Notes under the pieces: model-generated | What the model was told of the DNA's origin: nothing | The model's database searches: none | Seen by the model: the letters and a program-made list of their open reading frames with translations, nothing else | Shown here: piece by piece, positions 1 to 29,576 of the stretch | How positions within the stretch are numbered: the stretch's first letter is position 1 | Layout of the letters: each line of letters opens with the position of its first letter | Made by a program: the position numbers and the translations under genes | Source of the DNA: Candidatus Multivoradales bacterium | GTDB taxonomy: Bacteria > Acidobacteriota > Thermoanaerobaculia > Multivoradales > JAHEKO01 | DNA: 64,000 bases | Assembly: GCA_965223155.1 (NCBI GenBank) | Contig: CBDCVR010000014.1 | Span: 160,001-224,000 of the forward strand | Direction of reading: 5' to 3'

Positions 1-366
1 AAGGGGCGCGAGCCCGGGCTGCTTGCGTGGGTTACCCCAGAAGCAGTGCGGTTCCACAGTTTTTGGGGCGGGTTCGGCGAAATCACAGGTGACGAATGGG
101 CGGCTCAGATCCAGTACGCACAAGACAAACTTGGGGCACAGAACTGGCTGCTCGCAGCGCATGGGCACCCGAGCAAGCAAGCAGAATATAGTGCGGCGGA
201 TCAGAAGGTGGCGAACTACTTCTTCGAGCTCGGCATGTTTTTCTACTCGGCGGCTGAGGGTGGCGTCGGAGATGCGTTCGGCCGCACATTTTCCTGGGCG
301 AGCCTTAATGTTCACTCCTCCACTCCACGCAAGGCGTGCGTTGAGAACAAGATGATTCCCAAGTAG
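1..366 (+). CDS. C-terminal part of an Rhs toxin with JAB/MPN (JAMM) domain, cut by the window edge
   Basis: Frame open from base 1 (KGREPGLLAW...). Exact HxH-x7-S-x2-D motif HGHPSKQAEYSAAD at 160-201. Resembles the toxin at 5005-5658 (GKEP...AHGHPS). Confidence 0.7.
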   Translation, partial: KGREPGLLAWVTPEAVRFHSFWGGFGEITGDEWAAQIQYAQDKLGAQNWLLAAHGHPSKQAEYSAADQKVANYFFELGMFFYSAAEGGVGDAFGRTFSWASLNVHSSTPRKACVENKMIPK

Positions 367-384
367 ATCGAGAGCGCCTAGGGA

Positions 385-1476
385 ATGCCAAGACGAGCGA
401 GACTCTTTTTCGGAGCCGTGAGCCTGCTGTACTCAATCGCAGCGATCGGGGCTACGGAGGAGCCTTGTCTTGAGATTGGGTGGACCCTGAAGAGGGGCGA
501 ATCGAGTCCGGAGGTGTCGCCAGTCCCGGTCGCATCAGTCCTCCCGCGACTCAGTGAACTGAATCCTTACGGACCGCACCAGGTGCTGAGAGGCTATCTG
601 GCGAACAGGTCCCGGCTGTGCCCAGAGTTGCTTGCGCTTGATGATACCGGAGATTCGACGTGTCTCAAGCTCAAGACAGAGCACTTCGTAGGAGCCGCTT
701 TCGATCATGTGCTGGACCAATGGGACGGTGAGCTGGTCGATGTCACTGGAAGCGTCACAGTGGAGGGCGGCTATTTCCGACGGCAGGCATGGTCACTGAT
801 CGTTGGAACGATTCGGCCGGTGTCACGGAGTCCGTCCCTCGCCTTCTGTAGGGACTATGACGGCCCCCTGGAGGCCGCCCCGAGAGATCGTTTGTACGAG
901 AGTCGTTGGGATCGATACCGATACTTGGAAAGCGAGCTCGCAGATGGGTCGAAAGCCTTCTTGCATCCCCGAAAGTCGCTCGTGGGACGCTTCCCAAAGA
1001 ATCCGACTCGGCATTCCAAGTCTCTAGAGACGATTGACTTATCCCCTCCGGCACCGTTCACAGGACGGGATGTCGTAAAGATGGAGGCGTTAGTTTGGGG
1101 ACGATTTTTCTACCAACTAAGAGACGACAGAGCCTACATTTGGGACCAAGGTGCTATTCGCGCGTTGGAGCCATGGCCGATATCGGAAGTTTCTTTCGGC
1201 GAGCCCGAAGGCGTCTTCTACTACTACACGGAGCCGGCGACGGATTCCGGAGAACCGGCAACTCAGTACGTCAAACTTCTGGACCGTGAACTAAAAAAGC
1301 ACGTGTTATGGCAGTCGACCGAGTTCGCCGTGCACGAGTGGGAATTTTCTGATGGGCTCGAGTTGACGATCCGAAGGGTCCCCGACGAGCACAAGATCAA
1401 GATCGAGTTGCCAGAGACTCCGCGAATTCTGGAAGCAATTCCTGCTTGCCAAGCCACCGACCGTGATCCTGGCTAG
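385..1476 (+). CDS. Putative exported immunity protein (OB-fold-like domain + beta-rich C-terminus)
   Basis: N-terminal signal-peptide-like segment; directly after toxin stop; paralog of 5668-6825 (LDQWDGELVDVTG/LGQWEGELLDVGG, AFCxDYxGPLEA). Confidence 0.7.
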   Translation: MPRRARLFFGAVSLLYSIAAIGATEEPCLEIGWTLKRGESSPEVSPVPVASVLPRLSELNPYGPHQVLRGYLANRSRLCPELLALDDTGDSTCLKLKTEHFVGAAFDHVLDQWDGELVDVTGSVTVEGGYFRRQAWSLIVGTIRPVSRSPSLAFCRDYDGPLEAAPRDRLYESRWDRYRYLESELADGSKAFLHPRKSLVGRFPKNPTRHSKSLETIDLSPPAPFTGRDVVKMEALVWGRFFYQLRDDRAYIWDQGAIRALEPWPISEVSFGEPEGVFYYYTEPATDSGEPATQYVKLLDRELKKHVLWQSTEFAVHEWEFSDGLELTIRRVPDEHKIKIELPETPRILEAIPACQATDRDPG

Positions 1477-1480
1477 GGTT

Positions 1481-3450
1481 CCAAGACCACGAGCTTCGCC
1501 CGGGGTCCCTACCAATACACCTCGGCCTACGCCTACACCGACGGCGGCGCCATCGGCTCTGTCACCTATCCGACCTGTGACGCGGGCTTTGCCTGCCCCG
1601 CCACCCCCGAGCCCGCCCGCACCGTCTCCTACACCTACGAGCAGGGGCTGCTCCGCCAGGTCCCGGGCTGGACCAATACCATCACCTACCATCCGACGGG
1701 CGCCTGGAGCCAGATGCCCCGGGTCAACACCGTTACCGACGGCCGCGACTCCGACCCGGCCTCACCCGACCGTCTCAACCGCTTCCACGCCTCCTCGCCT
1801 TCCACCGGAGCCTCCTGGGACTCCGGAACCATGGCCTACGATGGCTCGGGCAACTTGAAGTCCATCGGCGCCGACACCTACACCTACGATCAATCCTCGC
1901 GCCTCCTCTCCGGCACCGCCGGCGGCGAGCGCCAGGACTACACCTACGACGCCTTCGGCAACATCACCCAGATCGCCCATACCGATGCCGGTGGCACCCT
2001 GACCACCCGCTCCATCGGGGTCGTGCCCTCGACCAACCGGTTGTCCGTCGCCACCTACGACGCGGCCGGCAACCTCACCTCCTGGGCCGGCAACACCTAC
2101 ACCTGGGACGCCCTGGGATCGCTGGTCCAGTTCAACGGCGGCCAGAACGGCGGCGGCACCTACCTCTACGACGTCGAAGACCGGCGGGTCGCCGTCTTGA
2201 AAAGCCCTGACAACTCCGCGGCCGCCAAAGACGAGACCTACATCCTCCGGAGCCTGGCGGGCCAGACCCTGCGCGAGTTCACCGTCACCGGGATCGACAG
2301 CCCCGCCACCCGGGCCTGGCAGAAGGACTACTTATACGCCGCCGGCAACCTCCTTGCATCCGTCAAGACCGATGGCGCAGGAGGCGAAGACATCCGGCAC
2401 TACCACCGCGACCACCTGGGGAGCCCGCGCTTGATTACCGACGCGTCAGGCTCCGAGGTCGGACGGCGAACCTATCTCCCCTACGGCGAAATGGTCACCG
2501 ACACCGCCTCCGACGAGACCCACAAATACACCCTCCACGAGCGCGACGAAAACTTCGCCGGCACCGACGACGACCTCGACTACATGCTGGCCAGGTACTA
2601 CTCCCCGCACTTGGGAAGGTTCCTAAGCTGCGATCCCGAGAGGGGACGGGCGGAGCGGTTACAGACGCTGAACCGGTACGCCTACGCGTGGGGGAACCCG
2701 GTGAAGCATGTGGATCCGGATGGGAAGGATCCGTGTAATGTGATCTACACCAAGGACGGCGGTGTGTATTTTGAATGCGGAGGCTCCACTACTGCAAGCT
2801 CCGGGGAAGAAGAGAAGAAGGGCAACCCGGGACTACCCGGCGAGCCCTGCAATTTCTCGGTGGACGGGGTGGAGATGGGCACCTGCGGTGACGACCCTGT
2901 CGAGCTCTCGCTGATGGACCGTCTGCAGCAGATGCAGGAACATGGACAGCCATGTAAGACGTTTGAGGGCAAGGGACAGTGGGCTGGTTCCTGGAACTGG
3001 GTGATCGGTTCACAATCGGAGCACGCACTAAACGCCATGCAGCACCTCCTTCAGGTTTCCTATGATTCCGGAGGCAATTTCGCAGAATATGGGATGTACG
3101 CCTATTTGGATCCGAGTGGCCAAATCCGATTCTCTCAGCCGGTGACCCAGGGTGATCCAGAGCGAGTGTTCATCGATGTTGCGCCAGAGCACCAAGGCAC
3201 GCTTTTGTTTGCTGTTCACACGCATCCCAAAGGGCGGACTACGAGCGGGAGCCTGTTCGGTCGTGCAGGCGACGCTGCGTGGGCCGACTTTTGGACGGCG
3301 CCCATCTTCTCCGCATCCTCAGCAGGCGGCATCGCCATGGTCACTCAGAAGCTCACGGGCGGACGGGGCGAGGCTTCGGCCGCGTGGGCGTATTTTGGCC
3401 GAGGGCCGAACGGTGAACCCGTAGCCTTCCCAGCGTGTAATGGACGTTGA
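1481..3450 (+). CDS. Orphan Rhs cassette A: 5'-truncated Rhs core + JAB-like C-terminal toxin (2725-3450)
   Basis: YD repeats, HRDHLGSPR, ARYYSPHLGRFLS, NPVKHVDPDG. CT has AEYG...VHTHP...AGD. Core homology begins at 1481 with no genuine start; first in-frame ATG at 1714. Confidence 0.85.
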
Positions 3451-3524
3451 TGCAATCCGAGAGCACGCCCTCAGGCGACTGTCAATCCGACCGAGAGGAA
3501 ACTCGGGTGCATAGGAGCAGTGGC

Positions 3525-4304
3525 ATGTCGCACCTTCGTCAGGTCGCGCTCGAGCACGTTGTCCTCTTTAGCCTCATGCTTCTGAGTAGCATGCTGATCG
3601 TTCCCTTGGGTTTGCGAGCGGTCCCGGTCGCCGTTGCGGCTTGGGTGGGGATCTTCGTACTACTCGTTCGCCCCGCTTGGGCGTATCTCTTCTTGCTTGC
3701 ATGGTGCCTCTTGACGTTCGGTGTTCGGTATGACGACTATCTGTTTAAGTTCTCATCGCCAATCTTGGCTACCGTTCCGTTGGTGATCCATCTAGTCCTT
3801 TCCTGGATTTGGTGGCAGACCGGCCGAGCCGAGGGCTCGCTCGCCAGCCGTAGGCGCTTATGGCAATACTTGGGTATCGGGCTCCTCGGTACATTCACGT
3901 TCTCCAGCCAGTACTGGTTAGGCGAACCTCGGGAGCCAATCGCTGTTGCGGCGCTCATGGCGTTCTTTCTCCTCATCTTTCAGATCGTGTTGCTGGCAAG
4001 TTTCTGGGCACGGGATCCCTGGCCCGCGATGACTCCGTTACGACTCACGACATGGCTTGTCGGATGGTACTTGTCGTACTTCTTGGTCGAAATGCAAGAC
4101 GGGTTCATTGTGAAGTTGCCTGCGGCTGTCACCGTCGCCTTCTTTGTTGGAAGCTTTCTGGTCCAGGCTTCCGCCTACCGAACGCTTGCTCGCGAGTTCC
4201 ATGAAAGACGCGGCTGGCGGGCGCTCTATGTCGCAACGGTAACCATCGCTGTACAGATGTCGTTTGCCGTCTTCGTTTTCTGGCGCGTCTACCTGGTCTA
4301 CTAG
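3525..4304 (+). CDS. Multi-pass membrane protein, putative immunity protein
   Basis: Several hydrophobic helices. AGGAG before the ATG at 3525 gives 259 aa, the same length as paralog 27921-28700 (WLVGWYLSYFLV shared). Confidence 0.7.
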   Translation: MSHLRQVALEHVVLFSLMLLSSMLIVPLGLRAVPVAVAAWVGIFVLLVRPAWAYLFLLAWCLLTFGVRYDDYLFKFSSPILATVPLVIHLVLSWIWWQTGRAEGSLASRRRLWQYLGIGLLGTFTFSSQYWLGEPREPIAVAALMAFFLLIFQIVLLASFWARDPWPAMTPLRLTTWLVGWYLSYFLVEMQDGFIVKLPAAVTVAFFVGSFLVQASAYRTLAREFHERRGWRALYVATVTIAVQMSFAVFVFWRVYLVY

Positions 4305-4365
4305 CCTGACGGACACCTCCTCGACTGCGACGAAAACTTTACCGGCGAGGCCGTTGCCGGGGGCT

Positions 4366-5658
4366 GCCGGCAACACCTCCACCTGGGACGCCCTGGGGTC
4401 GCTGGTCCAGTTCAACGGCGGCCAGAACGGCGGCGGCACCTACCTCTACGACGTCGAAGACCGGCGGGTCGCCGTCTTGAAAAGCCCTGACAACACCGCG
4501 GCCGCGAAAGACGAGACCTACATCGTCCGGAGCCTGGCGGGCCAGACCCTGCGCGAGTTCACCGTCACCGGCCCCACCAGCCCCGCAACCCGGGCCTGGT
4601 CCAAGGACTACTTATACGCCGCCGGCAACCTCCTTGCATCCGTCAAGACCGATGGCGCAGGAGGCGAAGACATCCGGCACTACCACCGCGACCACCTGGG
4701 GAGCCCGCGCTTGATTACCGACGCATCAGGCTCCGAGGTGGGCCGGCGGACCTATCTCCCCTACGGCGAAATGGTCACCGACACCGCCTCCGACGAGACC
4801 CACAAATACACCCTCCACGAACGGGACGAGAACTTCGCCGGCACCGACGACGACTTGGACTACATGCTGGCCAGGTACTACTCCCCGCACCTGGGAAGAT
4901 TCCTAAGCTGTGATCCGGAGAGGGGACGGGCGGAGCGGTTGCAGACGCTGAATCGGTATGCGTATGCGTGGGGGAATCCGGTGAAGAATGTGGATCCGGA
5001 TGGGAGGGATCCGTGTACAACGACCACCCAGGTAACAGTAATCTTCCCCGACGGTTCGACACAGGAATATACGGAAACCAAGGTCGACGAAGAATGTCGA
5101 GTTCAACAGGACTGGGACAACCGTTGTAATGACCCAGTCCTCCGCCGGGCTGACCCAACTTGTACGAGCGATTCGTTTACTGAAAATGAAGAATTGCACG
5201 GCGACTTGGAACTTGAAGACTTCGAGAACCGCACTCGCGAGCAGGCAACCGCGGTAGTTGGCCTACTCGACTGCCTCCGACAGGCAACCGCAATCGCCGG
5301 GGGAAAGGAGCCGTTCTTTGCACTTTTCCGCCACAACGGAAGGCTTAACATCGCCCACAACCCCGGTGTCCAAGTCGGCGCGGCGGACATCAAAGGTTTC
5401 CTAACAAACCTTTTCGATCAGTATCCTGGTGCGGAGGTCGCGCTCGTCGCTCACGGTCACCCGTCGGGGGACGGTACTCTTTCTCAGGACGACCTAGAGA
5501 TTGCCTTCGCGGCCTGGGGTGGATGGGAGTTCCTCGGAGTCGGGGAGAACGGGGTGGGAACATTGTGGGGAGGCCTAATGGGTTGGCAAGGGCTTGGACG
5601 GACCCAAGCTAGTTCCCTTGAGGACTGCGAGAGCATGGGATTCAAAATGCGGTGGTAG
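4366..5658 (+). CDS. Orphan Rhs cassette B: short core + JAMM toxin (5005-5658)
   Basis: Core homology from ~4366; NPVKNVDPDG; CT GKEP...HGHPSGDGTLSQDD = HxH-x7-S-x2-D. Confidence 0.85.
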   Translation, partial: AGNTSTWDALGSLVQFNGGQNGGGTYLYDVEDRRVAVLKSPDNTAAAKDETYIVRSLAGQTLREFTVTGPTSPATRAWSKDYLYAAGNLLASVKTDGAGGEDIRHYHRDHLGSPRLITDASGSEVGRRTYLPYGEMVTDTASDETHKYTLHERDENFAGTDDDLDYMLARYYSPHLGRFLSCDPERGRAERLQTLNRYAYAWGNPVKNVDPDGRDPCTTTTQVTVIFPDGSTQEYTETKVDEECRVQQDWDNRCNDPVLRRADPTCTSDSFTENEELHGDLELEDFENRTREQATAVVGLLDCLRQATAIAGGKEPFFALFRHNGRLNIAHNPGVQVGAADIKGFLTNLFDQYPGAEVALVAHGHPSGDGTLSQDDLEIAFAAWGGWEFLGVGENGVGTLWGGLMGWQGLGRTQASSLEDCESMGFKMRW

Positions 5659-5667
5659 GAGATCGGT

Positions 5668-6825
5668 TTGAACTTAAGAAAACTCATTTGGGCCGCGGTT
5701 CTTCTGCTCGCTCCGAGCGGTTTGTTTGCAGATGAAAAGTGCGTCGCTTCCGAGCAGGGGCTTGTCTGCACCTTTCCGGTGGATAAGGACTCGCCACTAG
5801 TGGACGTTCAAGCTCTGCGGTGGGGCTCGATTGAGTCGATAGAACATTCGTTCCCCGACAAGGCCGAGGCTTGCGGACGATTGGAATCGTCCCAATTGCC
5901 CGGTGAGCGATTCCCATTCGTCAGTGACCAAGACTCGCAAGTGGCGGTGCTCGAAGCCCTACAACGGCGTTTCGTGTTGCAGGGCGTTGGCCTTGTGGTC
6001 CGAGGTACCCTAGTGAAGACGTCAGGCGACTGGCTGTGCGCAGATGGAGTTGGTCCAGGCAAGGCGGCCGAAGGGCTTTGTATTCGGATCGACGTTGAAC
6101 CTATCAACTCAGGTCCCCATGTCGCCGAGACACTTGGCCAATGGGAAGGCGAGCTCTTGGATGTAGGTGGGTGGATTACGATGCCGACGCGGGGGCACTT
6201 GGCGGCCGGATCGTGGGTCCTCGAGGCGTGGTCGATCGTTCCGGTGACACGGCCTCCTTCACCAGCTTTCTGTGAGGACTACATAGGCCCTCTGGAGGCC
6301 TCGCCGGTAGAGGCTAGCTACGATTGGGCAAGGAAAACGTACCGACCTGCCTTTCGGCTGGGGGATGGCCCTCGTGTCCACCTTCACCCTAGGCGGGCAG
6401 AAGTCGGTCTGTTCGGAACGCCTGGGTCTGAGCGCCCTGGCGAGACGATTAGGTTCTCGGTGCCCGAACCCTATTCAGGACGCGATGTCCGGTCTCTCGC
6501 TCTCATCGATAGGTCACGACTCGTGTTTCTGCTCCGCAACGAGGAGTTGTGGCTGTGGGACGGAGGCCGTCTTGAACAGTTGTCCGGCCGGCAGGTCCGC
6601 TCGCTCTGGACAGCGGGCGAGGCCGCATTCTATTTGATGCAACAAAGCGTCGAGGGCGGCTTTTTTTCCCGCGTTGTTCGGCTGAGTCGCGACCTTGAGC
6701 AGACGACGATTTGGGAAGGAACGCTGAACGGAGAGATTGAGGACTGGTCTGGGGCGCCTGACTCGAGCGCCCTTTACTTGATGATCGATCCCGGCCCGCG
6801 GGTGGTAAAGGTCGCGCTGCCCTAG
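5668..6825 (+). CDS. Putative exported immunity protein
   Basis: Signal peptide (MNLRKLIWAAVLLLAPSGLFA); paralog of 385-1476; follows toxin B. Confidence 0.7.
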   Translation: MNLRKLIWAAVLLLAPSGLFADEKCVASEQGLVCTFPVDKDSPLVDVQALRWGSIESIEHSFPDKAEACGRLESSQLPGERFPFVSDQDSQVAVLEALQRRFVLQGVGLVVRGTLVKTSGDWLCADGVGPGKAAEGLCIRIDVEPINSGPHVAETLGQWEGELLDVGGWITMPTRGHLAAGSWVLEAWSIVPVTRPPSPAFCEDYIGPLEASPVEASYDWARKTYRPAFRLGDGPRVHLHPRRAEVGLFGTPGSERPGETIRFSVPEPYSGRDVRSLALIDRSRLVFLLRNEELWLWDGGRLEQLSGRQVRSLWTAGEAAFYLMQQSVEGGFFSRVVRLSRDLEQTTIWEGTLNGEIEDWSGAPDSSALYLMIDPGPRVVKVALP

Positions 6826-6894
6826 CGGCGGCACCTATCTCTACGAGGTCGACGACCGGCGCGTGGCGGTCTCTGAGGAGCCCGACAACATCGC

Positions 6895-9195: not shown

Positions 9196-9197
9196 TC

Positions 9198-10082: not shown

Positions 10083-10100
10083 TTCGTTATCACATCGGTA

Positions 10101-12033: not shown

Positions 12034-12052
12034 GGGAGTTCCCCTCCAGAGA

Positions 12053-12120
12053 GAGGTTCCATCCTTTTCGCAAGAACTAATCAGTAGTTGACGTTTTCGA
12101 AAGGGGTGGGACCTACTTGG
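12053..12120. repeat. ~68-bp imperfect hairpin element, copy 1
   Basis: AGGTTCCATCCTTTTCG (12054-12070) pairs with CGAAAGGGGTGGGACCT (12098-12114); near-identical to 25509-25576. Confidence 0.85.
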
Positions 12121-12206
12121 CGTGGATTCTGTCGCCCGAAGTACTCGGATGTTCAATACGCGCCGGCGAACCGCGGTAAGGAAATCGGTTTCGATTGGAC
12201 TGATGG

Positions 12207-19236: not shown

Positions 19237-20738
19237 GCCAAGTGCATCGAACCGTGGCTCGGGATGGCCTCGACATCACTGCGGCATCCTCAGCCGTTGT
19301 ACTGTGTGTTCTTGTCTGCCTGATCGAAATAGCGATTTCTCAATCGGTCGCAGGGCAGCAGCTCGAGTGGCCGGGCTCGTGTCGGTCCGACGAAGATCCC
19401 TGCAGCGCCATGGCGCTGTCGGCTTCCTTCCAGGCCAAGGAGGGGCGGCTGTCGGTGTGCGTCGATGGTCAGGGTCGACCCATTCTCTGGAAGGAACGCA
19501 AACCCAGACGGTATGGCTGCCAGGAGCTAGGGTGGCACGGGACGAAGCTCCCAATGCCACCAGGGCGATCGTCCGACGACCTCATTCAAATCGAAGCACT
19601 TGCTTCCGAGAATGCCGGCCTGGTGCTCTTGCTTTTCCGCGATGGAAGCCTGTTCTCTTGGGACTGGAGTGCTCCGGATTTGTCTCTGCTGGAATCGACA
19701 GGTGTCCGTGAGTTGTTTCGGCGTCCCGGTCTCGTCTTCTATTCTCAGAGCAGCGTCGAAGAGAGTGTTTCGGCGGAGTCTCTCTACTCCATATCCGGAG
19801 CCGGTCAAAAGCGGCAGGTCTGGAGCTTCGAAGGGCGGCATCTCGCGCATGTCTTCTTGAATCCAAATGGAGAAGGAATCGGGGTGCTTACCGAGTTCAA
19901 GGAGCACGAAGAAGAGTGGCTGGTCGATGACTCCGGCGCCAGGTTGGTGCAAGCACGCCGCCGAAACTGGGAGCTTCCCTTGGAAGCCTGGGAGCCGGTC
20001 GAACGACCTACCCTTGATCCAGGGGAAGTCCCAGGCTGGCTCCTCGGTCAGTGGTCGCTCCGGGAAGAGAACGATCACATCGTAGCCGCAAGCCCAAAGC
20101 CGGAGAGGCGTGGAGACGAAGTGCCCTTCTGGGTACCGCTGCGGCGAGGCCGGGAGGGTGAACGAATCGCCCTCAGGGTCGACAACGGATTCCTCCTCGG
20201 CTTCGATATGGGCGAATGGGGAGGAGGACTGTGGTTCTTCGACCCTGCCGGAAAGCAGTCCTACCCACTCTTTGCCGACAGCGATCCTGTGAACGATCTT
20301 CTGGATCTAGGTCACGAAGTTGTTGCGGTCTCCAGAGGTGCAAGCCGAGTTCGCTTTGAAGGTCAGGTACGGCTCGCTCCGTGTCTCTGGCGCCTTCACA
20401 AGGCCGGCGATCGTTGGGAGGTTCGGGAAACCCTGAAATGCGACGGCGTCTACGCGTCTTCCGTCCAGAACGATGGATCCCTTCTATTCGCCTCGCCGAC
20501 TGCGTTACATCGCTATCGGGACGGTGGGATCGAACGCCTGCATGAATTCAGAGGCTCGATTGCGCCGATTTCGATGCTGGCGAGGTCTGAAACCGAGATC
20601 TGGCTGGGGCTTGTCAACGCTGTCGTTCGACTCGACAGGAGCGGTACCGACTGGTCAGAGCAGTGGTTTGCCCCACCACGTGATCCTGATCCGGACTCTG
20701 AGCGTTGTCGAGAGCCCCGAGAAACTTACGAGGACTAG
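19233..20738 (+). CDS. Putative exported immunity protein (beta-propeller-like)
   Basis: GTGA overlap with the toxin stop; hydrophobic leader; paralog of 26219-27724 (GFLxGF..G..GGGLW, WxGLVNxVVRL, WSEQW). Confidence 0.7.
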   Translation: MSQVHRTVARDGLDITAASSAVVLCVLVCLIEIAISQSVAGQQLEWPGSCRSDEDPCSAMALSASFQAKEGRLSVCVDGQGRPILWKERKPRRYGCQELGWHGTKLPMPPGRSSDDLIQIEALASENAGLVLLLFRDGSLFSWDWSAPDLSLLESTGVRELFRRPGLVFYSQSSVEESVSAESLYSISGAGQKRQVWSFEGRHLAHVFLNPNGEGIGVLTEFKEHEEEWLVDDSGARLVQARRRNWELPLEAWEPVERPTLDPGEVPGWLLGQWSLREENDHIVAASPKPERRGDEVPFWVPLRRGREGERIALRVDNGFLLGFDMGEWGGGLWFFDPAGKQSYPLFADSDPVNDLLDLGHEVVAVSRGASRVRFEGQVRLAPCLWRLHKAGDRWEVRETLKCDGVYASSVQNDGSLLFASPTALHRYRDGGIERLHEFRGSIAPISMLARSETEIWLGLVNAVVRLDRSGTDWSEQWFAPPRDPDPDSERCREPRETYED

Positions 20739-20873: not shown

Positions 20874-22736
20874 TCGTCGACAAGAACAACGCCGACCGGC
20901 CCTTGAAGGAGTACGTCTACGACACCGCTTCGGGCCGCGGCGCGGGCAAGCTCGCCCAAGCCACCCGGCACAACTACGTCACCCTCCCCTGGAACGCGAC
21001 CGAGACGGACGCCTGGGTGACCGACCTCTACGACTACTCCGGCACCGCCGGAGCGCCCTCGGCCAAGACCACGAGCTTCGCCCGAGGTCCCTATCAATAC
21101 ACCTCGGCGTACGCCTACACCGACGGCGGCGCCATCGGCTCGGTGACCTACCCCACTTGTGACGCAGGCTTTGCCTGCCCGGGCACTCCCGAGCCCGCCC
21201 GCACCGTCTCCTACACCTACGAACAGGGCCTTCTGCGCCAGGTTCCAGGCTGGACCAACACCATCACCTACCATCCCTCGGGCGCCTGGAACCAGATGCC
21301 CCGGGTCAACACCGTCACCGACGGCCGCGACTCCGACCCGGCCTCGCCCGACCGTCTCAACCGTTTCCACGCCTCCTCCCCCTCCACCGGAGCCTCCTGG
21401 GACTCCGGGACCATGGCCTACGACGGCTCCGGCAACTTGAAATCCATCGGCGCCGACAAGTACACCTACGACCAGTCCTCGCGGCTTCTGTCCGGCACCG
21501 CCGGCGGCGAGCGCCAGGACTACACCTACGACGCCTTCGGCAACATCACCCAGATCGCCCACACCGATGGTGGCGGTGGAGTAACCACCCGTTCGATCGG
21601 AGTCGTGCCCTCGACCAACCGGCTGTCCGTCGCCACCTACGACGCCGCCGGCAACCTCACCTCCTGGGCCGGCAACACCTACACCTGGGACGCCCTGGGG
21701 TCGCTGGTCCAGTTCAACGGCGGCCAGAACGGCGGCGGCACCTACCTCTACGACGTCGAAGACCGGCGGGTGGCGGTCTTGAAGAGCCCTGACAACACCG
21801 AGGCCGCCAAAAGACGAGACCCACAAATACACCCTCCACGAGCGCAACGAGAACTTCGCCGGCTCCGACGACGACTTGGACTACATGCTGGCCAGGTACT
21901 ACTCCCCGCACCTGGGGAGGTTCCTCAGCTGCGACCCGGAAAGGGGACGGGCGGAGCGGTTGCAGACGCTGAACCGGTACGCCTACGCGTGGGGGAACCC
22001 GGTGCGGTACAACGATCCCGATGGGAGGGATCCGGACGATCCCGAGGACGACTCCGGGGATGATTCCGGAGACGGTGACCTTCCCGATGCGGACGACTGC
22101 GCGGACAACCCCAAGCTGTGCGCGACCATTAAGGACAAGACAGACGCTACCGATGATTCACCGATACCGGCCTACTGCTCGATTGCTCAGAATAGAAATA
22201 CTCTCTTCTGCCGGTACCTAAGTCAGAACTTTCAGACAACCCCACCTCACGGCCCTGCGGCTTACAAGCCGACTTTTGCGAACGGCCTACGGACGGCATT
22301 CGACAGTCTGACCGGTCCTGACACCGTCAGCTACCTAAGGTGCGGCCTCACCAAGGCCACCAGCACTGGACTCGAATTCGGTGGCCACCTTGTCCGCAAT
22401 TCGTTTGGTGATCTAGCTCGTCGGATGACAGGCAACCAGGGTTCAAGACACGTGTCTATTGGCCCTGCCCCACCCGGAGCCGTCTTTGGATGGCATACGC
22501 AACCCGATGGTACTCACCTGGGCCCAGGAGATACAGCTGCCTTGTCAAGCGGTGATCAGCGCGGTATCCCACATATCATCCTCGACTCAAGACGGGGATC
22601 TGGTGGCCAGTTCACCGTCTATGTGCCAATAGAGGGAAGCAAGCCTCGAGCGGTCTTCTCGTCTCGTCTAAACAAGCTGCCCGGCTGGACAGGTAGCAAC
22701 GGAAACTGTGATTACGAGGGAGCGGCCAACTATTGA
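20874..22736 (+). pseudogene. Orphan Rhs cassette G with internal core deletion/frameshift + JAB-like toxin (22026-22736)
   Basis: Core 20874-21812 joined at GACGAGACC to the HKYTLHER part, plus an extra A; NPVRYNDPDG; CT LEFGG...WHTQP...GPGD. Confidence 0.8.
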
Positions 22737-24073
22737 GAAACAACCTTTCAGTCGTCACGCTGACGGCCACTCTGATCTGGGGGTCTGGTGCGCCAGCGAA
22801 TAGTACACCTTGCCTAGGAATAGGCCTGCCGACGCCGTCCGTCCCGCAGATAAGAGTCGGCAAGATCACTCGCGCAGGAAACGATTTCGATCGAAGCATT
22901 GTTTCGATCGAAGGGTTCCTCGGTGAGGTCGGATACGGTCGTCGAGTATCTTTGTGCCCTGACGCAACTACAGTTGCGATAGCAAACGAGTGCATCCTGC
23001 TTTCCTTTGACGTTGACGCGCTCGGACGTTGGCCCGAAGCCCTCCGGGCCCTGAGGGCGATGGAGGGAAGAGTCGTCAGGGTCGTCGGAAGATTTGAGCA
23101 CGGCTCAGGAAAGGAGCGGGCGCCTGGGACACTCGATGTCTACGCGGGCTATCTGGATTTCGTCTCGAGCGTCCATGTTGTCGATCAGGGCAGCGAGGCC
23201 TTCTGCCTGGAGCACCAGAGAGAAGTTCTGTCTGAGAAGCGTCTGAGGGACTGTCTCCTGGACACAACGATTCCGTTTGCTTGCTTCGATCCGTGGGGCC
23301 CGGTCATTTGGATCGACGAAGACTGGGACTCCGCAACGAATCCGACGCCGATTCGTTACGGTATCCCTAGCGGTTTCGACCTTGAGGACCTAACTGATGC
23401 GGCCGTCCTCTCGAAAACAAGCGTCTTCCTACAGTACGGAGATACTCTATATCGGTGGAACGGCACTGGTCCGGAACTCCTGGAGACCTCGGCCGGCAGG
23501 TTACTTCCCGAACCGGTTGGCGCTGATTCTGCTCAGAGTGTGTTCGTTGAGATCCGACGAGAAGCTCAGGCTAACAATCGGACGTGCCCGGCGAAGAGGG
23601 TGGACTCGCATTCCGCGCCGCAATGCTCTACTGAAGCCGCGCTCATGTTCCTTTGCGAACTAGGTCAAGTGTCTCACGAGTTCGCTCCTGGCCAGATTGC
23701 CTGTCTGGGCCAGGACGATGGCTCGATTTGGGTTCGAAGTCCGGGCGAGCGCTACGCACGACTCGAGTTCACCGAACCGACATCCGGTGGCAGGAGTGCG
23801 ATCGTTCAAGACTTCGAAGCGGAGTCGGCTCGCGAGTTCTTGTTCTCGACCAGCCTAGGACTCTTTCGCTGGGACCAAACTTCGTGGTCGCTCATCGACG
23901 ACTCTCCAACGTCGGCACTCCTCGTTGTCGAGGGAAGCATCTACTACAGGACAGCAAAGGGTGAGGTGCGAAGGGTTGTCGGCGAGAGCTGGTCAACGGT
24001 CGATAAGCCTTGGGAGCAGCTTCGGCGCATCCGGACTCCTCGAGGTTTGGTCGGGGCGACTCTCAAGGACTAG
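22733..24073 (+). CDS. Putative exported immunity protein
   Basis: TTGA overlap with the toxin stop; signal peptide; OB-like domain + Cys-rich segment; paralog of 24089-25450. Confidence 0.7.
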   Translation: MRNNLSVVTLTATLIWGSGAPANSTPCLGIGLPTPSVPQIRVGKITRAGNDFDRSIVSIEGFLGEVGYGRRVSLCPDATTVAIANECILLSFDVDALGRWPEALRALRAMEGRVVRVVGRFEHGSGKERAPGTLDVYAGYLDFVSSVHVVDQGSEAFCLEHQREVLSEKRLRDCLLDTTIPFACFDPWGPVIWIDEDWDSATNPTPIRYGIPSGFDLEDLTDAAVLSKTSVFLQYGDTLYRWNGTGPELLETSAGRLLPEPVGADSAQSVFVEIRREAQANNRTCPAKRVDSHSAPQCSTEAALMFLCELGQVSHEFAPGQIACLGQDDGSIWVRSPGERYARLEFTEPTSGGRSAIVQDFEAESAREFLFSTSLGLFRWDQTSWSLIDDSPTSALLVVEGSIYYRTAKGEVRRVVGESWSTVDKPWEQLRRIRTPRGLVGATLKD

Positions 24074-24088
24074 CCGGCACGGGCATCT

Positions 24089-25450
24089 ATGACCGGGCAT
24101 CGCTTGAGAAGGCTCCTGGCCGGAACGGCCCTCATCACTGCTCTCGGAGGCCTGGGAGCCGGGCCGGCATCGGCTGCCGAACAGAGCTGCCGAGGCGTCG
24201 GAAGTCTTCGGGATGGCGCTCCTGTCGTCTCAATGGACGAATTCGACGCGGATCCGACCCGTTGGTCCGATGTACGAGTGCAGGTATCCGGCCACCTCTC
24301 GAATCGGTCCTGGGCCGAAGCAGGAGTTGGCTTGCTTTGCTCGGAGGGGGAAGCGAGGCGCGAGCCCGGCGGCAGCTCCGGGAGGAACTGCGTCACGATC
24401 AATCTCCCGCTTGCGGATTCCAAGTCTCGATTTTCCCGGCGGCAAGTCATTCGCCGGCTTCTGGGCCGGCGGGTAGTGACCGAAGGAGTGTTCCTTCCGG
24501 CTGAGAAGCAACCGAACACGATCGCTACGGACTTCGGCCACACTCTGGGATCGCTGACAGAGGTCACTGCGCTCCTGAGCCTCGAAAGTGACTCGGCGGC
24601 CCTCTGCGTGTCGGAACAGCGGAACCTCCTGGTCCGCGAGAGGTTTGCGAGTTGTCGTATTCGAAGTCGTTCCGGAGCCGAAGAGCTTTGTCTCGACCCA
24701 CTTGGGCCCGTCGTTTGGCTACGAACGGCGAGCGGGGACGTTCGATCCGTCGCGTTTTCTCTCCCGCCGGGACGGAGGCTGCGAGAGGTCGAAGACCTGG
24801 TCCTTCATCCGCGTGGAGAGCTTGTACTACACATCGGCGGCGACGTTTTCGCTGAGGTGGAAGGAAATCTGGTCAAGCGCAACGAGCGCCCGATTGCGAG
24901 GCTGGTTCAAGACGTTGATGGCCAGGTCTTCGTTCTCAACAGGATCGACGAAGCCGCAACCGAGATTCTCTGCCCCGCGATGGAGCTGGGAAACGACTTC
25001 GAGCTCCGCTGTTCTCAGGAAGCCACGGACTTCTTGATCTGCCCCGATCAAGTAGCAACGAGTGCCCCCTGGACGACGGCCTGCCTGCGCTGGTGGAAGC
25101 GAGAGGTCTGGCTCTCGGACGATGGCAGCCACTGGCGTCGCGTGACCTACGGCCCCCTAGCCGGGGACAAGCCTCTTGTCATTCGTGATGGGTATGTCGA
25201 ATCGGCGAGTCGCTTCTATCTTGCTACTGAGAAGGGACTGTTTCTTGTCGAGCAAGGAAAGGGCCGGCTTGTGGACGAGGCAAGCGTCGAGGCTTTTCGG
25301 GTTGTCGGCGGTCGAACCTTCTATTTGACGAGTACTTGCGAGGTCCGGGAGGTGGTCGGTGACGCCTGGGCGTCCGCGGCGGCCGACTTCGAGGACTTGC
25401 GGCAAGAAGCCGAGGCTTGTCGGAAGTCGCGAAACCTCCGGGAAGACTAG
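24089..25450 (+). CDS. Tandem paralogous immunity protein
   Basis: Signal peptide; shares CxDPxGPVxW, CPA...CSxEAxxxxxC, GLF and EVRxVVG with 22733-24073. Confidence 0.7.
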   Translation: MTGHRLRRLLAGTALITALGGLGAGPASAAEQSCRGVGSLRDGAPVVSMDEFDADPTRWSDVRVQVSGHLSNRSWAEAGVGLLCSEGEARREPGGSSGRNCVTINLPLADSKSRFSRRQVIRRLLGRRVVTEGVFLPAEKQPNTIATDFGHTLGSLTEVTALLSLESDSAALCVSEQRNLLVRERFASCRIRSRSGAEELCLDPLGPVVWLRTASGDVRSVAFSLPPGRRLREVEDLVLHPRGELVLHIGGDVFAEVEGNLVKRNERPIARLVQDVDGQVFVLNRIDEAATEILCPAMELGNDFELRCSQEATDFLICPDQVATSAPWTTACLRWWKREVWLSDDGSHWRRVTYGPLAGDKPLVIRDGYVESASRFYLATEKGLFLVEQGKGRLVDEASVEAFRVVGGRTFYLTSTCEVREVVGDAWASAAADFEDLRQEAEACRKSRNLRED

Positions 25451-25508
25451 GAGATAGGAAGCTCGAGTTGGCCGACACTTCGCAGCTCGCTGGAAGCTTC
25501 GGGAGAGC

Positions 25509-25576
25509 GAGGTTCCACCCTTTTCGCAAGGACTAATCAGTAGTTGACGTTCTCGAAAGGGGTGGAACCTACTTGG
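25509..25576. repeat. ~68-bp imperfect hairpin element, copy 2
   Basis: AGGTTCCACCCTTTTCG ... CGAAAGGGGTGGAACCT ACTTGG; abuts the Rhs core-end motif. Confidence 0.85.
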
Positions 25577-26228
25577 GGAGGGTATGGATATGCGTGGGGG
25601 AATCCGGTGCGGTACCGAGATCCGGATGGGAAGAAGCTGCGGCGGTTCGAGACTAGCGACGAAGACGACGAGCAAGAAGGAGAGGGAGAGGAGGAGGAAG
25701 ATCCGACTTTCTCCGACGCGATAGTCGTCAGTGGCACCGGTGTCCCAGCGGTTTTCGATGCGTGCTCCAGTGACCTCTGGAGAGCATACCCAGAATGCAC
25801 TGGGCAAGATTCGATGACCGAGCTCATTGAGCTTCACCACGACATCGAGTTCGACACGCTGGAGTCTCAGTGGCAGCAGGACAATCGACGGTGCCACGCA
25901 ATACGCATTTGATTCTTGGGACGCTCGGAACACTACGGCGACAAGGAGCTACATCGATCTTCCGTTGATCCGGGGTGCCAAGTACCTATGGGGCATTCAC
26001 ACTCACAACGGTGATGGCAATTCGCATGGAGACGCAAAAACTTCCTGGCTGCTGGGGGCTTGCCTGCGCGAGTCGGGCGAACATTCCTGGGGCGTTCCGT
26101 ATATGGCTGTAGACTCAGACGGGGACTGGTCCGCGGTGCTCGCCCTGCGGAACCCTGATGCCGGACGCACGAGCCGTAAGAGCTTTTTGTCGGTCGACTT
26201 AGGCCAATTTGGGAATCCATGCGGGTAG
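25577..26228 (+). pseudogene. Minimal Rhs cassette H: core-end motif + internally deleted, frameshifted JAB toxin
   Basis: YGYAWGNPVRYRDPDG, then a CT split over ORFs 25544-25912 and 25827-26228; GIHTHNGDGNSHGD; ends LGQFGNPCG like toxin F (LGAFDPCG). Confidence 0.75.
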
Positions 26229-27724
26229 CTGACCTTCCGAACCTCAGGGGACTACCTAGTCTGAAGATCAAGCACGGCGGCCGAGGCTCGGCTGCCGCAG
26301 CCTGGCCAGTGCTTTCCTTAGGAGTCTTCTTGGCTGTGGCTGCTCCGGCCCGGTCCTCTGACCTTGACCGCGGAGGGCGGTCTAGTGATCTTGTGACGGT
26401 TCGCTACCCATGTAGGTCGCTACAGTTGACCACCAGAGTGCGCTGGGATGGTTCCAGACACCGAGCTCTATGTGTTGATCGTCACGACAAAGGGATTCTC
26501 TGGGTCTCCGGGACGGACGACCTGCAAGGGTCAAAGAGGGGTGAATGGCACGGCTACGAGTATCCAACACTTGACGATCATCCGCCAAGCGAGCTTGTCT
26601 CGATAGTGGCAAACGGCAAGGGCAACAGCCGGACCGTCTACTTGTTGTACCGGTGTGGCGATCTCTTCTCCTGGCCGTGGGAATCGCAGGCCTCGCAAGA
26701 ACTCGTGACCCGGGGCGTTCGGCTCCTCGATTCCGATCCGCGCGGCGTGTACTACGTCAAGGGCCCCCACGCGGCGCCGGCTGACGAAGGAGACCTACTC
26801 GTTGTTCTCGATCACCACGACCGAATTCGTTTCTCGTGGCAAAGAGAGGCGAGAAGAATCGAGCACTACAGCAGTGAGAAGAGCTCAGGCGAAGGAGGTT
26901 TGATTTCCGCCGCCACAGAGGCCGCGAGCGAGCTCTGGGAGCATGATGGAAGCGCATGGCAGCAACAGCGAGTTGATCCCTTGTTTGATTGCTTCTCGCT
27001 ATCTCATTGGCTCGAGATCCCGGCTCCAGAGTTTGACTACAGCAAGCCACCTCCGGTGGACATCTTGGGGCACTGGCGAGTGCGACTTGATGAGCGCCGT
27101 AGGGTTCTTGCGAGCAATCGAAAGCCCGTGAGCGCGGGTGGCGCGGTCTTGCCGTTCTTTGTCCCACTTGCTGAGTGGAGAGAGGGAGATCGTTTTGCGA
27201 CCGAAGTAGATGATGGATTTCTTGTGGGTTTCAGCGGCAGGGGTTCGCATGGTGGTGGCCTGTGGTCCTTCTCCATGAGAGGTGACGACGCTTACCTCGT
27301 GTACAGGGGAGATTCGATCGATTCCGTGATTGATCTTGGCCGGGAGGTCATCGCAACGAGTACAGGCAACCGGATGAGTGGCGATGTGGATTGCATCGTC
27401 CGGCTGGGTCGAGATTTCAGAGGTAGGTGGGTAGTTTACGAAACCCTTAGATGTCCCGGCGTTGCCGGCTACACGGTTGAAGGCCCTGGCTCGCTACTCT
27501 TCGTGTCCGATGACGGCGTCTACCGTTACTTCGCTGGGAGTATCGAAGAGGTTCACAAGTTCGGGACGGGGCGAGGTGTCCCGATATCTCTGGCCCAGGA
27601 ATCTGACGCCGTACTCTGGGTTGGCTTGGTCAACTATGTGGTCCGTCTGACTCGAGAGGGAGACGGCTGGAGTGAACAGTGGTATGAGCCGCCGCCTGAA
27701 GCAGCACGAAGCGGACCAAAATAG
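26219..27724 (+). CDS. Putative exported immunity protein (beta-propeller-like)
   Basis: Paralog of 19233-20738; overlaps the toxin H stop. Confidence 0.7.
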   Translation: MRVADLPNLRGLPSLKIKHGGRGSAAAAWPVLSLGVFLAVAAPARSSDLDRGGRSSDLVTVRYPCRSLQLTTRVRWDGSRHRALCVDRHDKGILWVSGTDDLQGSKRGEWHGYEYPTLDDHPPSELVSIVANGKGNSRTVYLLYRCGDLFSWPWESQASQELVTRGVRLLDSDPRGVYYVKGPHAAPADEGDLLVVLDHHDRIRFSWQREARRIEHYSSEKSSGEGGLISAATEAASELWEHDGSAWQQQRVDPLFDCFSLSHWLEIPAPEFDYSKPPPVDILGHWRVRLDERRRVLASNRKPVSAGGAVLPFFVPLAEWREGDRFATEVDDGFLVGFSGRGSHGGGLWSFSMRGDDAYLVYRGDSIDSVIDLGREVIATSTGNRMSGDVDCIVRLGRDFRGRWVVYETLRCPGVAGYTVEGPGSLLFVSDDGVYRYFAGSIEEVHKFGTGRGVPISLAQESDAVLWVGLVNYVVRLTREGDGWSEQWYEPPPEAARSGPK

Positions 27725-27920: not shown

Positions 27921-28700
27921 ATGCAGAAGATCCGACAGCTCGCCCTAGAGCACATCATCCTCTACGGACTGATGTTTCTTAGCGCCGCTTTGGTGGTGCC
28001 AATCGGTGCGAGGGCAGTTCCGCTGGCGATTCTGGCGCTTGCAGGTCCGATCCTTCTAAGTAGACAACCGCGGTGGGCTGGCCTGGTCTTGGTGTCGTGG
28101 TGTCTGCTTACGTTTGCCACCCAGTTCAGTGCGTATTTCTTCGACTTCGGGACCGGAATCCTCGTGGTCCTCCCAGTCCTCGCCCAGTTGGTGATCAGTT
28201 GGGTTTGGTGGCGCACAGGTCGCATCGCTCCGACGAGTCTCGAGGGGACGATGTCCTGGGACAACGTGGTGCTCGGTTCCGCAGCCATTGCCGCCTTCAG
28301 TTTCGAGGCCTGGCTTCGATTCCCTCAAGATCCCATGAACGCCGCGTTCTTGATGCTCCTCTTCATGACACTGCTTCAGGTGATCTTGCTGCTTGCTTTC
28401 TGGCGGGCCAGCCTTCGGTCCGCGATGAGCCCTGGAGCGGGCGGCAGTTGGCTCGTGGGCTGGTACTTGAGCTATTTCCTCGTTGCCGTGCAGGACGAGC
28501 CTCATGGCGTCGTGCGTTTCGCCCTCTTGCTGTGTTTCTTTACTGGTTGCGTACTCCTGCAGCGCTCGCTATACAAGACTCTGGCAGCGGCCTTCGCAGC
28601 CCGGCGACGGAGGGCAGCCTGGTTCAGCGCAATCGTTGCCATGACAGGACAAACACTCCTCGCAGTGATCGTCTTTTGGGAGATGTATGCGTTCTACTAG
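27921..28700 (+). CDS. Multi-pass membrane protein, orphan immunity paralog
   Basis: RQLALEHIILYGLM vs RQVALEHVVLFSLM; WLVGWYLSYFLV identical to 3525-4304. Confidence 0.72.
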   Translation: MQKIRQLALEHIILYGLMFLSAALVVPIGARAVPLAILALAGPILLSRQPRWAGLVLVSWCLLTFATQFSAYFFDFGTGILVVLPVLAQLVISWVWWRTGRIAPTSLEGTMSWDNVVLGSAAIAAFSFEAWLRFPQDPMNAAFLMLLFMTLLQVILLLAFWRASLRSAMSPGAGGSWLVGWYLSYFLVAVQDEPHGVVRFALLLCFFTGCVLLQRSLYKTLAAAFAARRRRAAWFSAIVAMTGQTLLAVIVFWEMYAFY

Positions 28701-28820
28701 CTTCGACGTCGGCTCGCCTGGTTTCCGTAGATGTCCCAGGCTTTTCCCGTAGCCTTTCTTGGAGCGGAGTGTGAGTGCGGAAGAAGACGCGGCTTTTCAC
28801 TTAGAAAGGCAGCTAGGTAG

Positions 28821-29429
28821 ATGATGTTGGCACTCTTGGTACTGGGATTGTCGCTACTCGGATCTTCGACGACAGCGATGGAGGAGGCGCACTTTCTTGT
28901 CGAAATGGATCGCTTCCAGGAGCAGGGGATGGCCCAAGAGCACGCAATTTCCAGAGGTGGATGGGTGCTAGGAGCCAATCTCTATTCGGATCTCGAGTCG
29001 GACGGCACCACTCAAGGTGGATCCTTTCTCTCGGTTAGGGGACCGTTCCCGACGCGCGAGGAAGCTGAGCGCCTGGCAAGCGAACTGCGGCGCCTGGCCG
29101 TCGCGCCAAACGCAACAGTCCGAGCCCTCGGGGAGCCCTCACAAGCTCTTGCCGAGCTGGCAGGCGACCTGCCACCGCCTGTCTTCGCTGCGGTTCTGGG
29201 GCAGATGCGCATCGATCTCTCGCCCAGCGGAGGAGGCAATCATCCCTGTGAGCCGCAGGAGTCCAATCAGGCGATTGGCGTGTCTTTTGTCAGCGGCGAA
29301 CGGGCCTGGGGAGGAGAAGATGGGACGGAGATCACTATTAGGAGTGTGAAGTCTCAGGTCGAGTTGGGCGGCCTCTGGTACTTGCCGGGAACGGACTCGA
29401 TTGTGCGGATGGCAGTCTGCAGCGAGTAA
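28821..29429 (+). CDS. Exported hypothetical protein with SPOR-like segment
   Basis: Signal peptide; VRGPFPTREEAERLASELRR resembles the SPOR motif. Confidence 0.5.
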   Translation: MMLALLVLGLSLLGSSTTAMEEAHFLVEMDRFQEQGMAQEHAISRGGWVLGANLYSDLESDGTTQGGSFLSVRGPFPTREEAERLASELRRLAVAPNATVRALGEPSQALAELAGDLPPPVFAAVLGQMRIDLSPSGGGNHPCEPQESNQAIGVSFVSGERAWGGEDGTEITIRSVKSQVELGGLWYLPGTDSIVRMAVCSE

Positions 29430-29490
29430 CCCAGTGAAGAAGCACTCACTCCTTCCCTAGAGCTAGAAAGAATCGATACAGGAGGACCGG

Positions 29491-29576
29491 CGCCTGGGTG
29501 ACCGACCTCCACGACTACTCCGGCGCCGCCGTCGCTCCCTCGGCCAAGACCACGAGCTTCGCCCGAGGTCCCTACC
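29491..29576 (+). repeat. Degenerate Rhs core remnant marking the end of the array
   Basis: CGCCTGGGTGACCGACCTC...GCCAAGACCACGAGCTTCGCCCGAGGTCCCTACC matches the core at ~7188-7273. Confidence 0.85.

Follow-up and report, generated by a model that had tools for sequence, protein, structure and literature searches.

The first 29,576 positions of the window analysed here, a stretch of 64,000 nucleotides from the genome of the acidobacterium Candidatus Multivoradales bacterium (contig CBDCVR010000014.1, here C14, positions 160001–224000), form an island of Rhs genes. The island consists of the 3' end of a full-length rhs gene followed by eight orphan cassettes, each of which joins a fragment of the Rhs core to a C-terminal domain (CT) and has a coupled downstream gene. 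The nine CTs are labelled A to I, and the products of the downstream genes, termed partners below, iA to iK. All long open reading frames (ORFs) of the array lie on the plus strand, as do the features given below unless stated otherwise, and the G+C content of the variable parts of the island is approximately 57–62% versus approximately 68% across the remaining window. A tRNA scan found none. The locus is present in four sequencing runs from one study, and no RNA run is listed among its holders.

The full-length rhs gene, which the preliminary description of this DNA had sought upstream of the window, is located on contig C14 at 155282–160366 and encodes a protein of 1694 amino acids. The window thus opens inside CT-A, the last part of which occupies window positions 1–366 and contains the motif HGHPSKQAEYSAAD. 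Upstream in the gene, the protein has a TIGR03696 Rhs core at residues 1386–1469 (59 bits against a cut-off of 32.5), and PF05593 RHS repeats were found in the full-length gene as well as in cassettes B, D, E, and G (E 1e-7 to 1e-11). Its N-terminus, a positively charged stretch followed by APALVMTLLAALAAVSASA, was read by eye as a Sec signal peptide. Leaders also begin related Rhs genes in metagenome-assembled genomes (MAGs) of Thermoanaerobaculia and Holophagae, and the closest Rhs cores (37–44% identity) come from MAGs carrying these two labels, both of them classes of the Acidobacteriota. The closest foreign Rhs protein, from a Thermoanaerobaculia MAG and likewise equipped with a signal peptide, ends in a DUF5675 tip (E 9e-21). 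A PAAR or other trafficking domain was not found in the main Rhs protein by family scan, and the genome, which is 98.66% complete, gave no matches to TssC/VipB (PF05943), PAAR (PF05488), or Hcp (PF05638); VgrG was not searched. [quoted passage not shown] An ORF of up to 328 amino acids with an internal hydrophobic segment (contig C14, 154299–155285) extends 4 nt into the beginning of the full-length rhs gene. No Pfam or NCBIfam family matches it, and it may be a partner of rhs with an accessory role or one in export.

A tblastn search with the Rhs core recovered eight further fragments downstream of the main gene and one on the small contig C1. In seven of the cassettes the core fragment is 82–98% identical to the main gene by blastn over 222–2137 nt, whereas cassette I retains only about 50 nt. 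The array of orphan Rhs-CT and immunity genes behind a full-length rhs gene, as given in the preliminary description, is thus borne out by the nucleotide identity between the orphans and the main gene's 3' core. Each core fragment ends in a boundary of the form NP(V/L)xxxDP(D/T)G, the DP[DT]G part of which was seen in every cassette examined, and is followed by a CT of 220–245 amino acids. The start of the partner ORF lies within −10 to +18 nt of the CT stop.

Uninterrupted frames from core to CT were observed in A (within the main gene) and in five of the orphans. These are cassette B (1714–3450; blastn and language-model neighbours), C (4264–5658; blastn and motif scan), D (6991–9195), in which a core fragment of 494 amino acids precedes a CT that is 37% identical to CT-F, E (12088–13806), which was characterised by weak thioesterase matches, and G (16501–19236; motif scan and structure model), which has a core fragment of 670 amino acids. 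The frames of F, H, and I are broken. In cassette F (14152–15284) a frameshift immediately ahead of DPDG separates the frames of core and CT (frame analysis); cassette H (20903–22736) has both a deletion of 94 core codons and a frameshift, and its CT motif is degenerate (tblastn and alignment); and cassette I (25544–26228) contains about ten core codons and an A/C-type pre-toxin region and then, past a frameshift, a toxin core of the G type. The partner genes behind these three broken cassettes are intact. An IS3-type transposase fragment (10122–10904; rve, rve_3, and HTH_21 in the family scan) is inserted in the array, and a 92-nt relic of the Rhs core (29485–29576; 91% identical to the main gene by blastn) closes the island on the right.

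In CT-I, A/C-type and G-type parts are combined, a chimera which shows that cassettes have exchanged sequence. Contig C1 (3800 nt) carries cassette B once more; the CT-B and iB proteins there are 100% identical to those of the island but are joined to a longer, different Rhs core (93–97% nucleotide identity), and behind them comes a core fragment resembling the one in cassette E. This copy, either a population variant or a second locus, hints at movement of cassettes. A 73-nt repeat (93% identical between its copies) lies directly 5' of cassettes E and I (12048–12120 and 25504–25576); the ORFs of both cassettes start with MTFSKGV, and contigs C13 and C4 hold shorter copies of the repeat. Possibly the two cassettes were truncated by a mobile element of which this repeat is one end. 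A contig joint from 2703 to 4993, which fuses the core of B to CT-C, was considered as a case of cassette switching and rejected (depth 2, a side of 21 nt, nine unmatched letters). Contigs matched to window positions 1–20000 break at Rhs repeats, and a joint from 5015 to 1 is the main gene running into CT-A.

The array might be mostly a graveyard, in which only CT-A and iA are used, the orphans are relics of past displacements that no longer switch, and the immunity genes are kept against neighbours. The three broken frames among the eight orphans (one of them also lacking a catalytic His), the interruption by the transposase fragment and the 73-nt repeat, the intact partners behind broken cassettes, two partners (iH2 and iJ) without a toxin of their own, and a promoter scan of the array that yielded four sites against 4.2 expected, i.e., no enrichment, all agree with such a state. 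Against it stand the five intact orphans, whose cores provide a substrate for recombination with the main gene, the recurrence of cassette B in a different core context, and the chimeric CT-I. We regard a mere graveyard as unlikely, and in any case it bears on the current activity of the array and not on the identity of its parts.

Eight of the nine CTs share a Glu-containing strand and a motif of the type HxH...S/T..D, and the ninth, CT-E, is without it. CT-A (HGHPSKQAEYSAAD), CT-C (HGHPSGDGTLSQDD), and CT-G (HSHLTGSNSPSDAD) have the exact JAMM spacing HxH-x7-S-x2-D, the loop is one to two residues short of this spacing in CT-D (HTHHTGSGVTAGD), CT-F (HVHPTDPNPSRED), and CT-I (HTHNGDGNSHGD), and CT-B has a longer spacer (HTHP-x13-AGD). 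Six of the nine CTs contain the strict form H.H.{5,7}[ST]..D, in each case at CT residues 154–176. Its background frequency, determined from 1,092 ORFs of two other contigs with high G+C at third codon positions, was seven matches in 575,341 residues, which corresponds to 0.0029 per 240 amino acids, the approximate length of one CT. The upstream Glu resides in a hydrophobic strand 40–60 residues before the motif and is aligned in seven of the eight motif-bearing CTs (CT-I has Arg), and in an alignment of 17 sequences that includes DUF4329 and RadC the Glu and both His are nearly invariant. All motifs listed in the preliminary description are thus present and the shared Glu strand it described is recovered. 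Its 'HTQ' register for cassette H could not be maintained, as MAFFT aligns this CT as T-H-L-G-x7-S-S-G-D, with Gly in place of the second His.

The motif-bearing domains are small, about 130–150 amino acids. Between DPDG and this JAB-like core, A, B, C, G, and H contain a region of 70–110 amino acids with four Cys (e.g., 4993–5270, 2713–2960, 18511–18850, and 22014–22340), which could be a separate small disulfide module. D and F have a Lys/Gly/Asp-rich linker instead, which is nearly identical between the two. In M23/LytM and LAS-type peptidases an Asp precedes the HxH, a position unlike that in the CTs, and as no Pfam match to these families was obtained at E<=1 this identity was rejected. 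In CT-E a nucleophile-elbow motif, GHSEG, is present; its matches to alpha/beta-hydrolases and thioesterases (the latter at E 0.09–0.8) are weak, and a membrane partner of 121 amino acids follows it. Cassette E may encode a lipase or esterase toxin.

In profile comparisons the best sequence relative of the CTs is RadC. Aligned by hhalign with six RadC JAB domains, the profile of the eight motif-bearing CTs reached a probability of 94.5% (E 7.6e-8) over 43 columns by default and 110 columns under relaxed settings, and an earlier profile of nine CT sequences scored 89% (E 2.2e-6); the CT profile and RadC have HxHPSG..S..D in common. By subfamily, the E-values against RadC were 6.8e-6 for A/C, 5.3e-5 for D/F (78 columns), 1.8e-3 for G/I, 3.7e-3 for B, and 0.016 for H. 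In genome searches, RadC genes were the only genuine outside matches of the CT profile. Among 300 other genomes of the same class it found five matches at E<=1e-3, four RadC proteins and one repetitive protein, and in its own genome the next matches after the CTs were the two RadC genes. These are ordinary (contig C10, 1129–1914, and contig C13, 227920–228651; HTHPSGDPSPSAED and HNHPSGDPSPSAED), and one of them is situated on a small contig of 7 kb with an island-like G+C content of 61%. A search of PHROGs, in which the profile had nine members, matched a RadC-type 'DNA repair protein' (E 0.0012) and a minor tail protein (E 0.047).

The pooled CTs also matched DUF4329 (E 5.3e-4, with helix 1 and the Glu strands aligned; 1.5e-3 for B alone) and Toxin-JAB1 (E 3.8e-4), the comparison members of which were taken from four of 401 genomes in the phylum to which the window belongs and four of 301 Bacteroidota genomes, respectively. 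For calibration, RadC and DUF4329 aligned at 4.1e-4, RadC and Toxin-JAB1 at 1.7e-4, and DUF4329 and Toxin-JAB1 at 0.077. Because of these values, the CTs can be considered about as distant from each of the named JAB families as these are from each other. A protein-language-model search with the whole CT-B domain placed it next to clusters of DUF4329, Toxin-JAB1, and Prok-JAB (score 0.94, 189 of 256 features). Collectively, the comparisons support, without proving it, that the CTs are related to JAB domains at the superfamily level.

Models of two CTs were computed by AlphaFold2. CT-G was modelled from an alignment that contained only the CTs and the JAB-like protein P0010 described below, and CT-D from an alignment of 17 rows, DUF4329 and RadC among them; since RadC was in it, the latter model is biased toward the JAB fold. 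Both models have the order helix, Glu strand, strand, HxH strand, helix with S..D, and two strands, which we take to be the order of JAB domains. In a VIA comparison of the CT-G model with 48,161 chains, BRCC36 ranked first (Z 4.5, root-mean-square deviation 7.2) and AfJAMM (1r5x) second (Z 3.9, root-mean-square deviation 3.4, 67 residues aligned), followed in lower rows by Rpn11 homologues, BRISC, RadC, and Sst2, so that at least eight of 50 rows are JAMM, MPN, or RadC proteins by title. The CT-D model matched cytosine deaminase (Z 5.0), tRNA deaminases, FdhD, RadC (Z 4.3), and the MPN domain of CSN6 (Z 4.2). As all these Z scores are within the range that the tool calls common, below its noise guide of 8, the ranks are consistent with a JAB fold and not decisive. 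The top Foldseek rows, DNA polymerase beta and transthyretin, are meaningless at such model confidence and were discarded.

Several results weigh against the assignment, and most of them fit an alternative in which the motif is convergent or merely a structural metal site and the CTs belong to several unrelated folds, the JAB signal being produced by the short HxH...S..D stretch alone. No CT reached a curated Pfam or NCBIfam threshold, the best match being RadC at E 0.11–0.12 (13 bits against a cut-off of 22); PF14220 and PF15659 had no match in the genome, and none to a CT at E<=1. The default RadC alignment of the profile with its 43 columns is mainly the motif region, and CT-H alone is not significantly JAB-like. 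Hidden Markov models built by leaving out one subfamily at a time recovered no left-out CT at E<=100, and hhalign between pairs of subfamilies was weak, with E-values from 6e-4 (D/F against B) to 0.74. A sequence search of the PDB with the CT profile returned GPX4 at E 1.6 and nothing else, the two models have low confidence (predicted local distance difference test scores of 40.6 for CT-G and 47.2 for CT-D), and Foldseek found nothing in the PDB at E<=0.001 for either of them. On the other hand, a short convergent motif does not readily account for its recurrence at a constant position in CTs of equal length, the Glu strand upstream, the alignments that extend over 78 (D/F) and 110 columns or take in helix 1 and the Glu strand of DUF4329, the language-model result for an entire domain, the first two ranks held by JAMM proteins for the weak CT-G model, which is the unbiased one, or the JAB-like succession of strands and helix in both models. 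We thus consider convergence rather improbable.

The proposal of the preliminary description that this locus diversifies a single toxin fold, which suggests diversification in place, is not supported as stated. What stands of this proposal is the match at the superfamily level. Because the five subfamilies miss each other by HMMER, they are better viewed as several very distant lineages of the JAB clan than as one diversifying family, and diversification in situ finds no support in the missed left-out CTs and the weak pairwise alignments. The comparison with JAB and DUF4329 profiles and folds that it had suggested gave matches to RadC, DUF4329, and Toxin-JAB1 in profile alignments and none above the Pfam thresholds or in Foldseek.

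The partner proteins bear on the compartment concerned. A signal-peptide-like N-terminus or membrane segments were present in all 12 of them according to a crude hydropathy rule, used in place of SignalP, which was also met by approximately 36% of 1,260 control ORFs; the exported or membrane-bound nature of the partners given in the preliminary description is to this extent confirmed. The protein starts with a short charged stretch and continues into a hydrophobic run in iA (385–1476, 363 amino acids), iC (5668–6825, 385 amino acids), iD (9198–10082, 294 amino acids, with two internal repeats of about 135 amino acids), iF (15281–16354, 357 amino acids), iG (19137–20738), iH1 (22733–24073, 446 amino acids), iH2 (24089–25450, 453 amino acids), iI (26219–27724, 501 amino acids), and iK (28821–29429, 202 amino acids). 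The true start of iG is probably a GTG at 19227–19254, which would give it a signal peptide or membrane anchor. Five to six membrane segments are predicted for iB (3447–4304, five segments) and iJ (27921–28700, 259 amino acids, polytopic), and two or more for iE (13821–14186, 121 amino acids). iH2 is a second partner in cassette H without its own toxin, and the same applies to iJ, a paralog of iB. No lipobox was seen in the partner N-termini, and none of the partners has a Pfam family, the only match being that of iD to DUF5818 (17.5 bits against a cut-off of 27).

By blastp the partners fall into the groups iA-iC-iF (iA and iC 31% identical), iG-iI (35%), iH1-iH2, and iB-iJ (42%). The iA/iC/iF group aligns with iH1/iH2 in hhalign (E 1e-5 to 1e-6), this set aligns with iG/iI (5.6e-5, 118 columns), and a weak match to the iD repeats (E 4.6e-3) has a two-Cys N-terminal module in common with it. 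These alignments suggest that most soluble partners constitute a modular family of their own. Similarity of toxins and of partners is correlated for A/C and G/I but not for D/F, the CTs of which are 37% identical while their partners differ.

As a rule, immunity proteins reside in the compartment where their toxin acts. The contiguous CTs contain even numbers of Cys (six each in A, B, C, G, and H, two each in D, E, and F), among them a conserved one behind helix 1 and another close to the C-terminus, a pattern expected of disulfide-bonded secreted proteins. From the exported or membrane-embedded partners, these Cys counts, and the Sec-type carrier we infer that the tips are delivered to the envelope and act there, outside the cytoplasm; the hydrolase-like CT-E with its membrane partner also fits an envelope target.

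The following mechanism would connect these observations. The orphan cassettes would serve as promoter-less spares, whose 3' core stretch could recombine with the main gene and so swap the tip presented by the Sec-exported Rhs protein. The tips would represent the JAB/MPN branch of the deaminase-like fold in five or more lineages very distant from each other (A/C, D/F, G/I, B, and H) and function as zinc hydrolases outside the cytoplasm, and the partners would neutralise them in the periplasm. JAMM proteins have isopeptidase activity. By analogy, the most likely substrate would be a bond within the envelope, either peptide or isopeptide, for instance in peptidoglycan stems and cross-links or in the link between lipoproteins and peptidoglycan, although this chemistry is a guess. 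The decay of F, H, and I with their partner genes intact would fit orphan immunity that is still useful. Overall, we assign a probability of roughly 0.6 to a Sec-exported Rhs protein with swappable, very distantly related, JAB-like, envelope-acting tips and exported partners. Counted against it must be, in addition to the low-scoring comparisons above, the crude rule by which the partner N-termini were judged, the polytopic iB and iJ, which would also agree with an activity directed at the membrane instead of peptidoglycan, and the fact that toxicity, metal binding, substrate, neutralisation, and cassette switching are all predictions from sequences and models. The wider generalisation that JAB-fold polymorphic toxins are envelope-acting zinc (iso)peptidases and not nucleases, of which one Sec-exported Rhs protein here presents distant versions that would cleave peptidoglycan or its protein anchors at a peptide or isopeptide bond from the periplasmic side, each restrained by a member of a hitherto unseen, modular family of secreted immunity proteins diversified along with them, is tentative and appears doubtful at present.

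Two immunity proteins that have been named for DUF4329 tips, NTF2-2 and CdiI, are cytoplasmic, while all 12 partners of the island look exported or membrane-bound. Neither a translocation domain in the Rhs protein nor an injection machine (TssC, Hcp, or PAAR in the genome, with VgrG not searched) was found, and the CTs contain paired cysteines. These features, together with the description of Imm65, the immunity protein of Tox-JAB-1, as a lipoprotein (Zhang et al., 2012; PMC3482391) and the lack of any report of nuclease activity of a Tox-JAB in the portions of the literature examined, where a single preprint calls activity and substrate 'still unknown', make it quite improbable that the tips enter the target cytoplasm and act there as JAB-like nucleases or RNases, with the exported partners guarding the producer's periplasm during Sec transit or not being immunity proteins at all, even though RadC is their closest sequence match, toxin JABs were described in the same text as RadC-like, devoid of the tunnel for ubiquitin tails, and thus possibly nucleases, and Rhs-DUF4329 is termed a putative RNase in later annotation papers.

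The envelope-acting JAB tips favoured here have a precedent in print, and the preliminary description's term 'uncharacterised envelope-acting JAB toxin' was in this respect too strong. According to Zhang et al. (2012; PMC3482391), Tox-JAB-1 occurs on Sec-type Rhs proteins of Bacteroidetes and its immunity protein Imm65 has a signal peptide and a lipobox; the argument from the compartment of the immunity protein was made there for L,D-peptidase toxins. Tox-JAB-1 (PF15659) and the tips described here share a carrier with a signal peptide instead of a T6SS adaptor, a JAB-like tip with Glu, HxH, S, and D, and an exported immunity protein, and in both cases function has been predicted from sequence. 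They differ in several respects: no CT matches PF15659 at E<=1 and the two are linked only by the hhalign value of 3.8e-4, the partners of the island have neither a lipobox nor a Pfam family, the phylum is another one, and eight such tips are united here in one array.

Tox-JAB-2/DUF4329 (PF14220), known from Proteobacteria and others, likewise forms a tip behind an Rhs core and has a Glu...H[ST]H...D arrangement, the long spacer of which recurs in CT-B. PF14220 matches no CT, though, the hhalign E-value is 5.3e-4, and the exported partners and the absence of a detected T6SS distinguish the island from these systems. Published sources list NTF2-2 as the DUF4329 partner in Escherichia coli (PMC3482391), describe delivery of Salmonella Rhs-DUF4329 by T6SS and PAAR, and report DUF4329-type Rhs tips across more than 150 Salmonella serotypes, with CdiI named as the immunity protein. 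The RadC-like JAB domain (PF04002), which has HxHPSG..S..D in common with the CT profile and is closest to it in sequence, belongs to a cytoplasmic housekeeping protein that has an N-terminal helix-hairpin-helix part, and the CTs score 13 bits against its cut-off of 22. Core-bearing orphan cassettes with an immunity gene behind each toxin are typical of the Rhs-CT arrays of Enterobacteria and of the Sec-dependent, Rhs-like WapA of Bacillus, which usually mix unrelated and mostly cytoplasm-acting toxin classes. The island resembles them in the order of main gene and cassettes that keep a piece of the core, and in the immunity gene directly behind each toxin. Unlike them, it carries one catalytic motif in eight of nine tips, and all of its partners look extracytoplasmic.

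Rhs orphan arrays, the JAB tips Tox-JAB-1 and Tox-JAB-2, and an exported immunity protein for a JAB tip have thus all been published. What sets this locus apart are new families of CTs and partners, the dominance of one motif in an array, the extracytoplasmic appearance of all partners, and a genome in which no T6SS was found. No experimental work on the activity of Tox-JAB toxins was found in the literature covered, which did not include subscription journals and supplements. The activity of Tox-JAB and DUF4329 tips has only been guessed to be that of a nuclease or RNase in the passages covered (PMC3482391 and later annotation papers), and a preprint from 2024 states that activity and substrate are 'still unknown'. 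The island offers a natural set of eight JAB-like tips, three of them with a textbook JAMM site, and with partners that all point to the periplasm, so that the question of the compartment, and then that of the substrate, is directly testable in E. coli. It also reveals a Sec-dependent Rhs system in an acidobacterial genome with no T6SS found. To our knowledge, no interbacterial weapons have been characterised in the Acidobacteriota.

The CTs and partners have essentially no relatives among billions of public proteins, and the locus thereby adds two sets of proteins without detectable relatives to these collections. A word-indexed search of 5.8 billion clusters, which has length limits, returned only the window's own proteins for CT-G, iA/iC/iF, and iG/iI. 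The CT profile found ten matches among 1.84 billion representatives: five of the window's own proteins, four repeat proteins, and P0010, a JAB-like protein of 122 amino acids (E 5.6e-4) that is the sole outside relative of the CTs in the searches run. Two of the four repeat proteins were inspected and judged spurious, and these matches were dismissed as relatives, as was a language-model match of iA to an OB-fold cluster, whose best score of 0.82 is below a meaningful level. Relatives of CTs or partners were also not found in 51 related Rhs loci of other species.

Two further genes at the island are encoded on the minus strand. Between the transposase fragment and cassette E, an ORF of 159 amino acids (11554–12033) begins with a lipoprotein-type leader (LVGAC). 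Adjoining the right end of the island, a protein of 751 amino acids (29618–31873) combines an N-terminal PilZ domain (E 4.4e-8) with a long acidic low-complexity middle part and one membrane segment.

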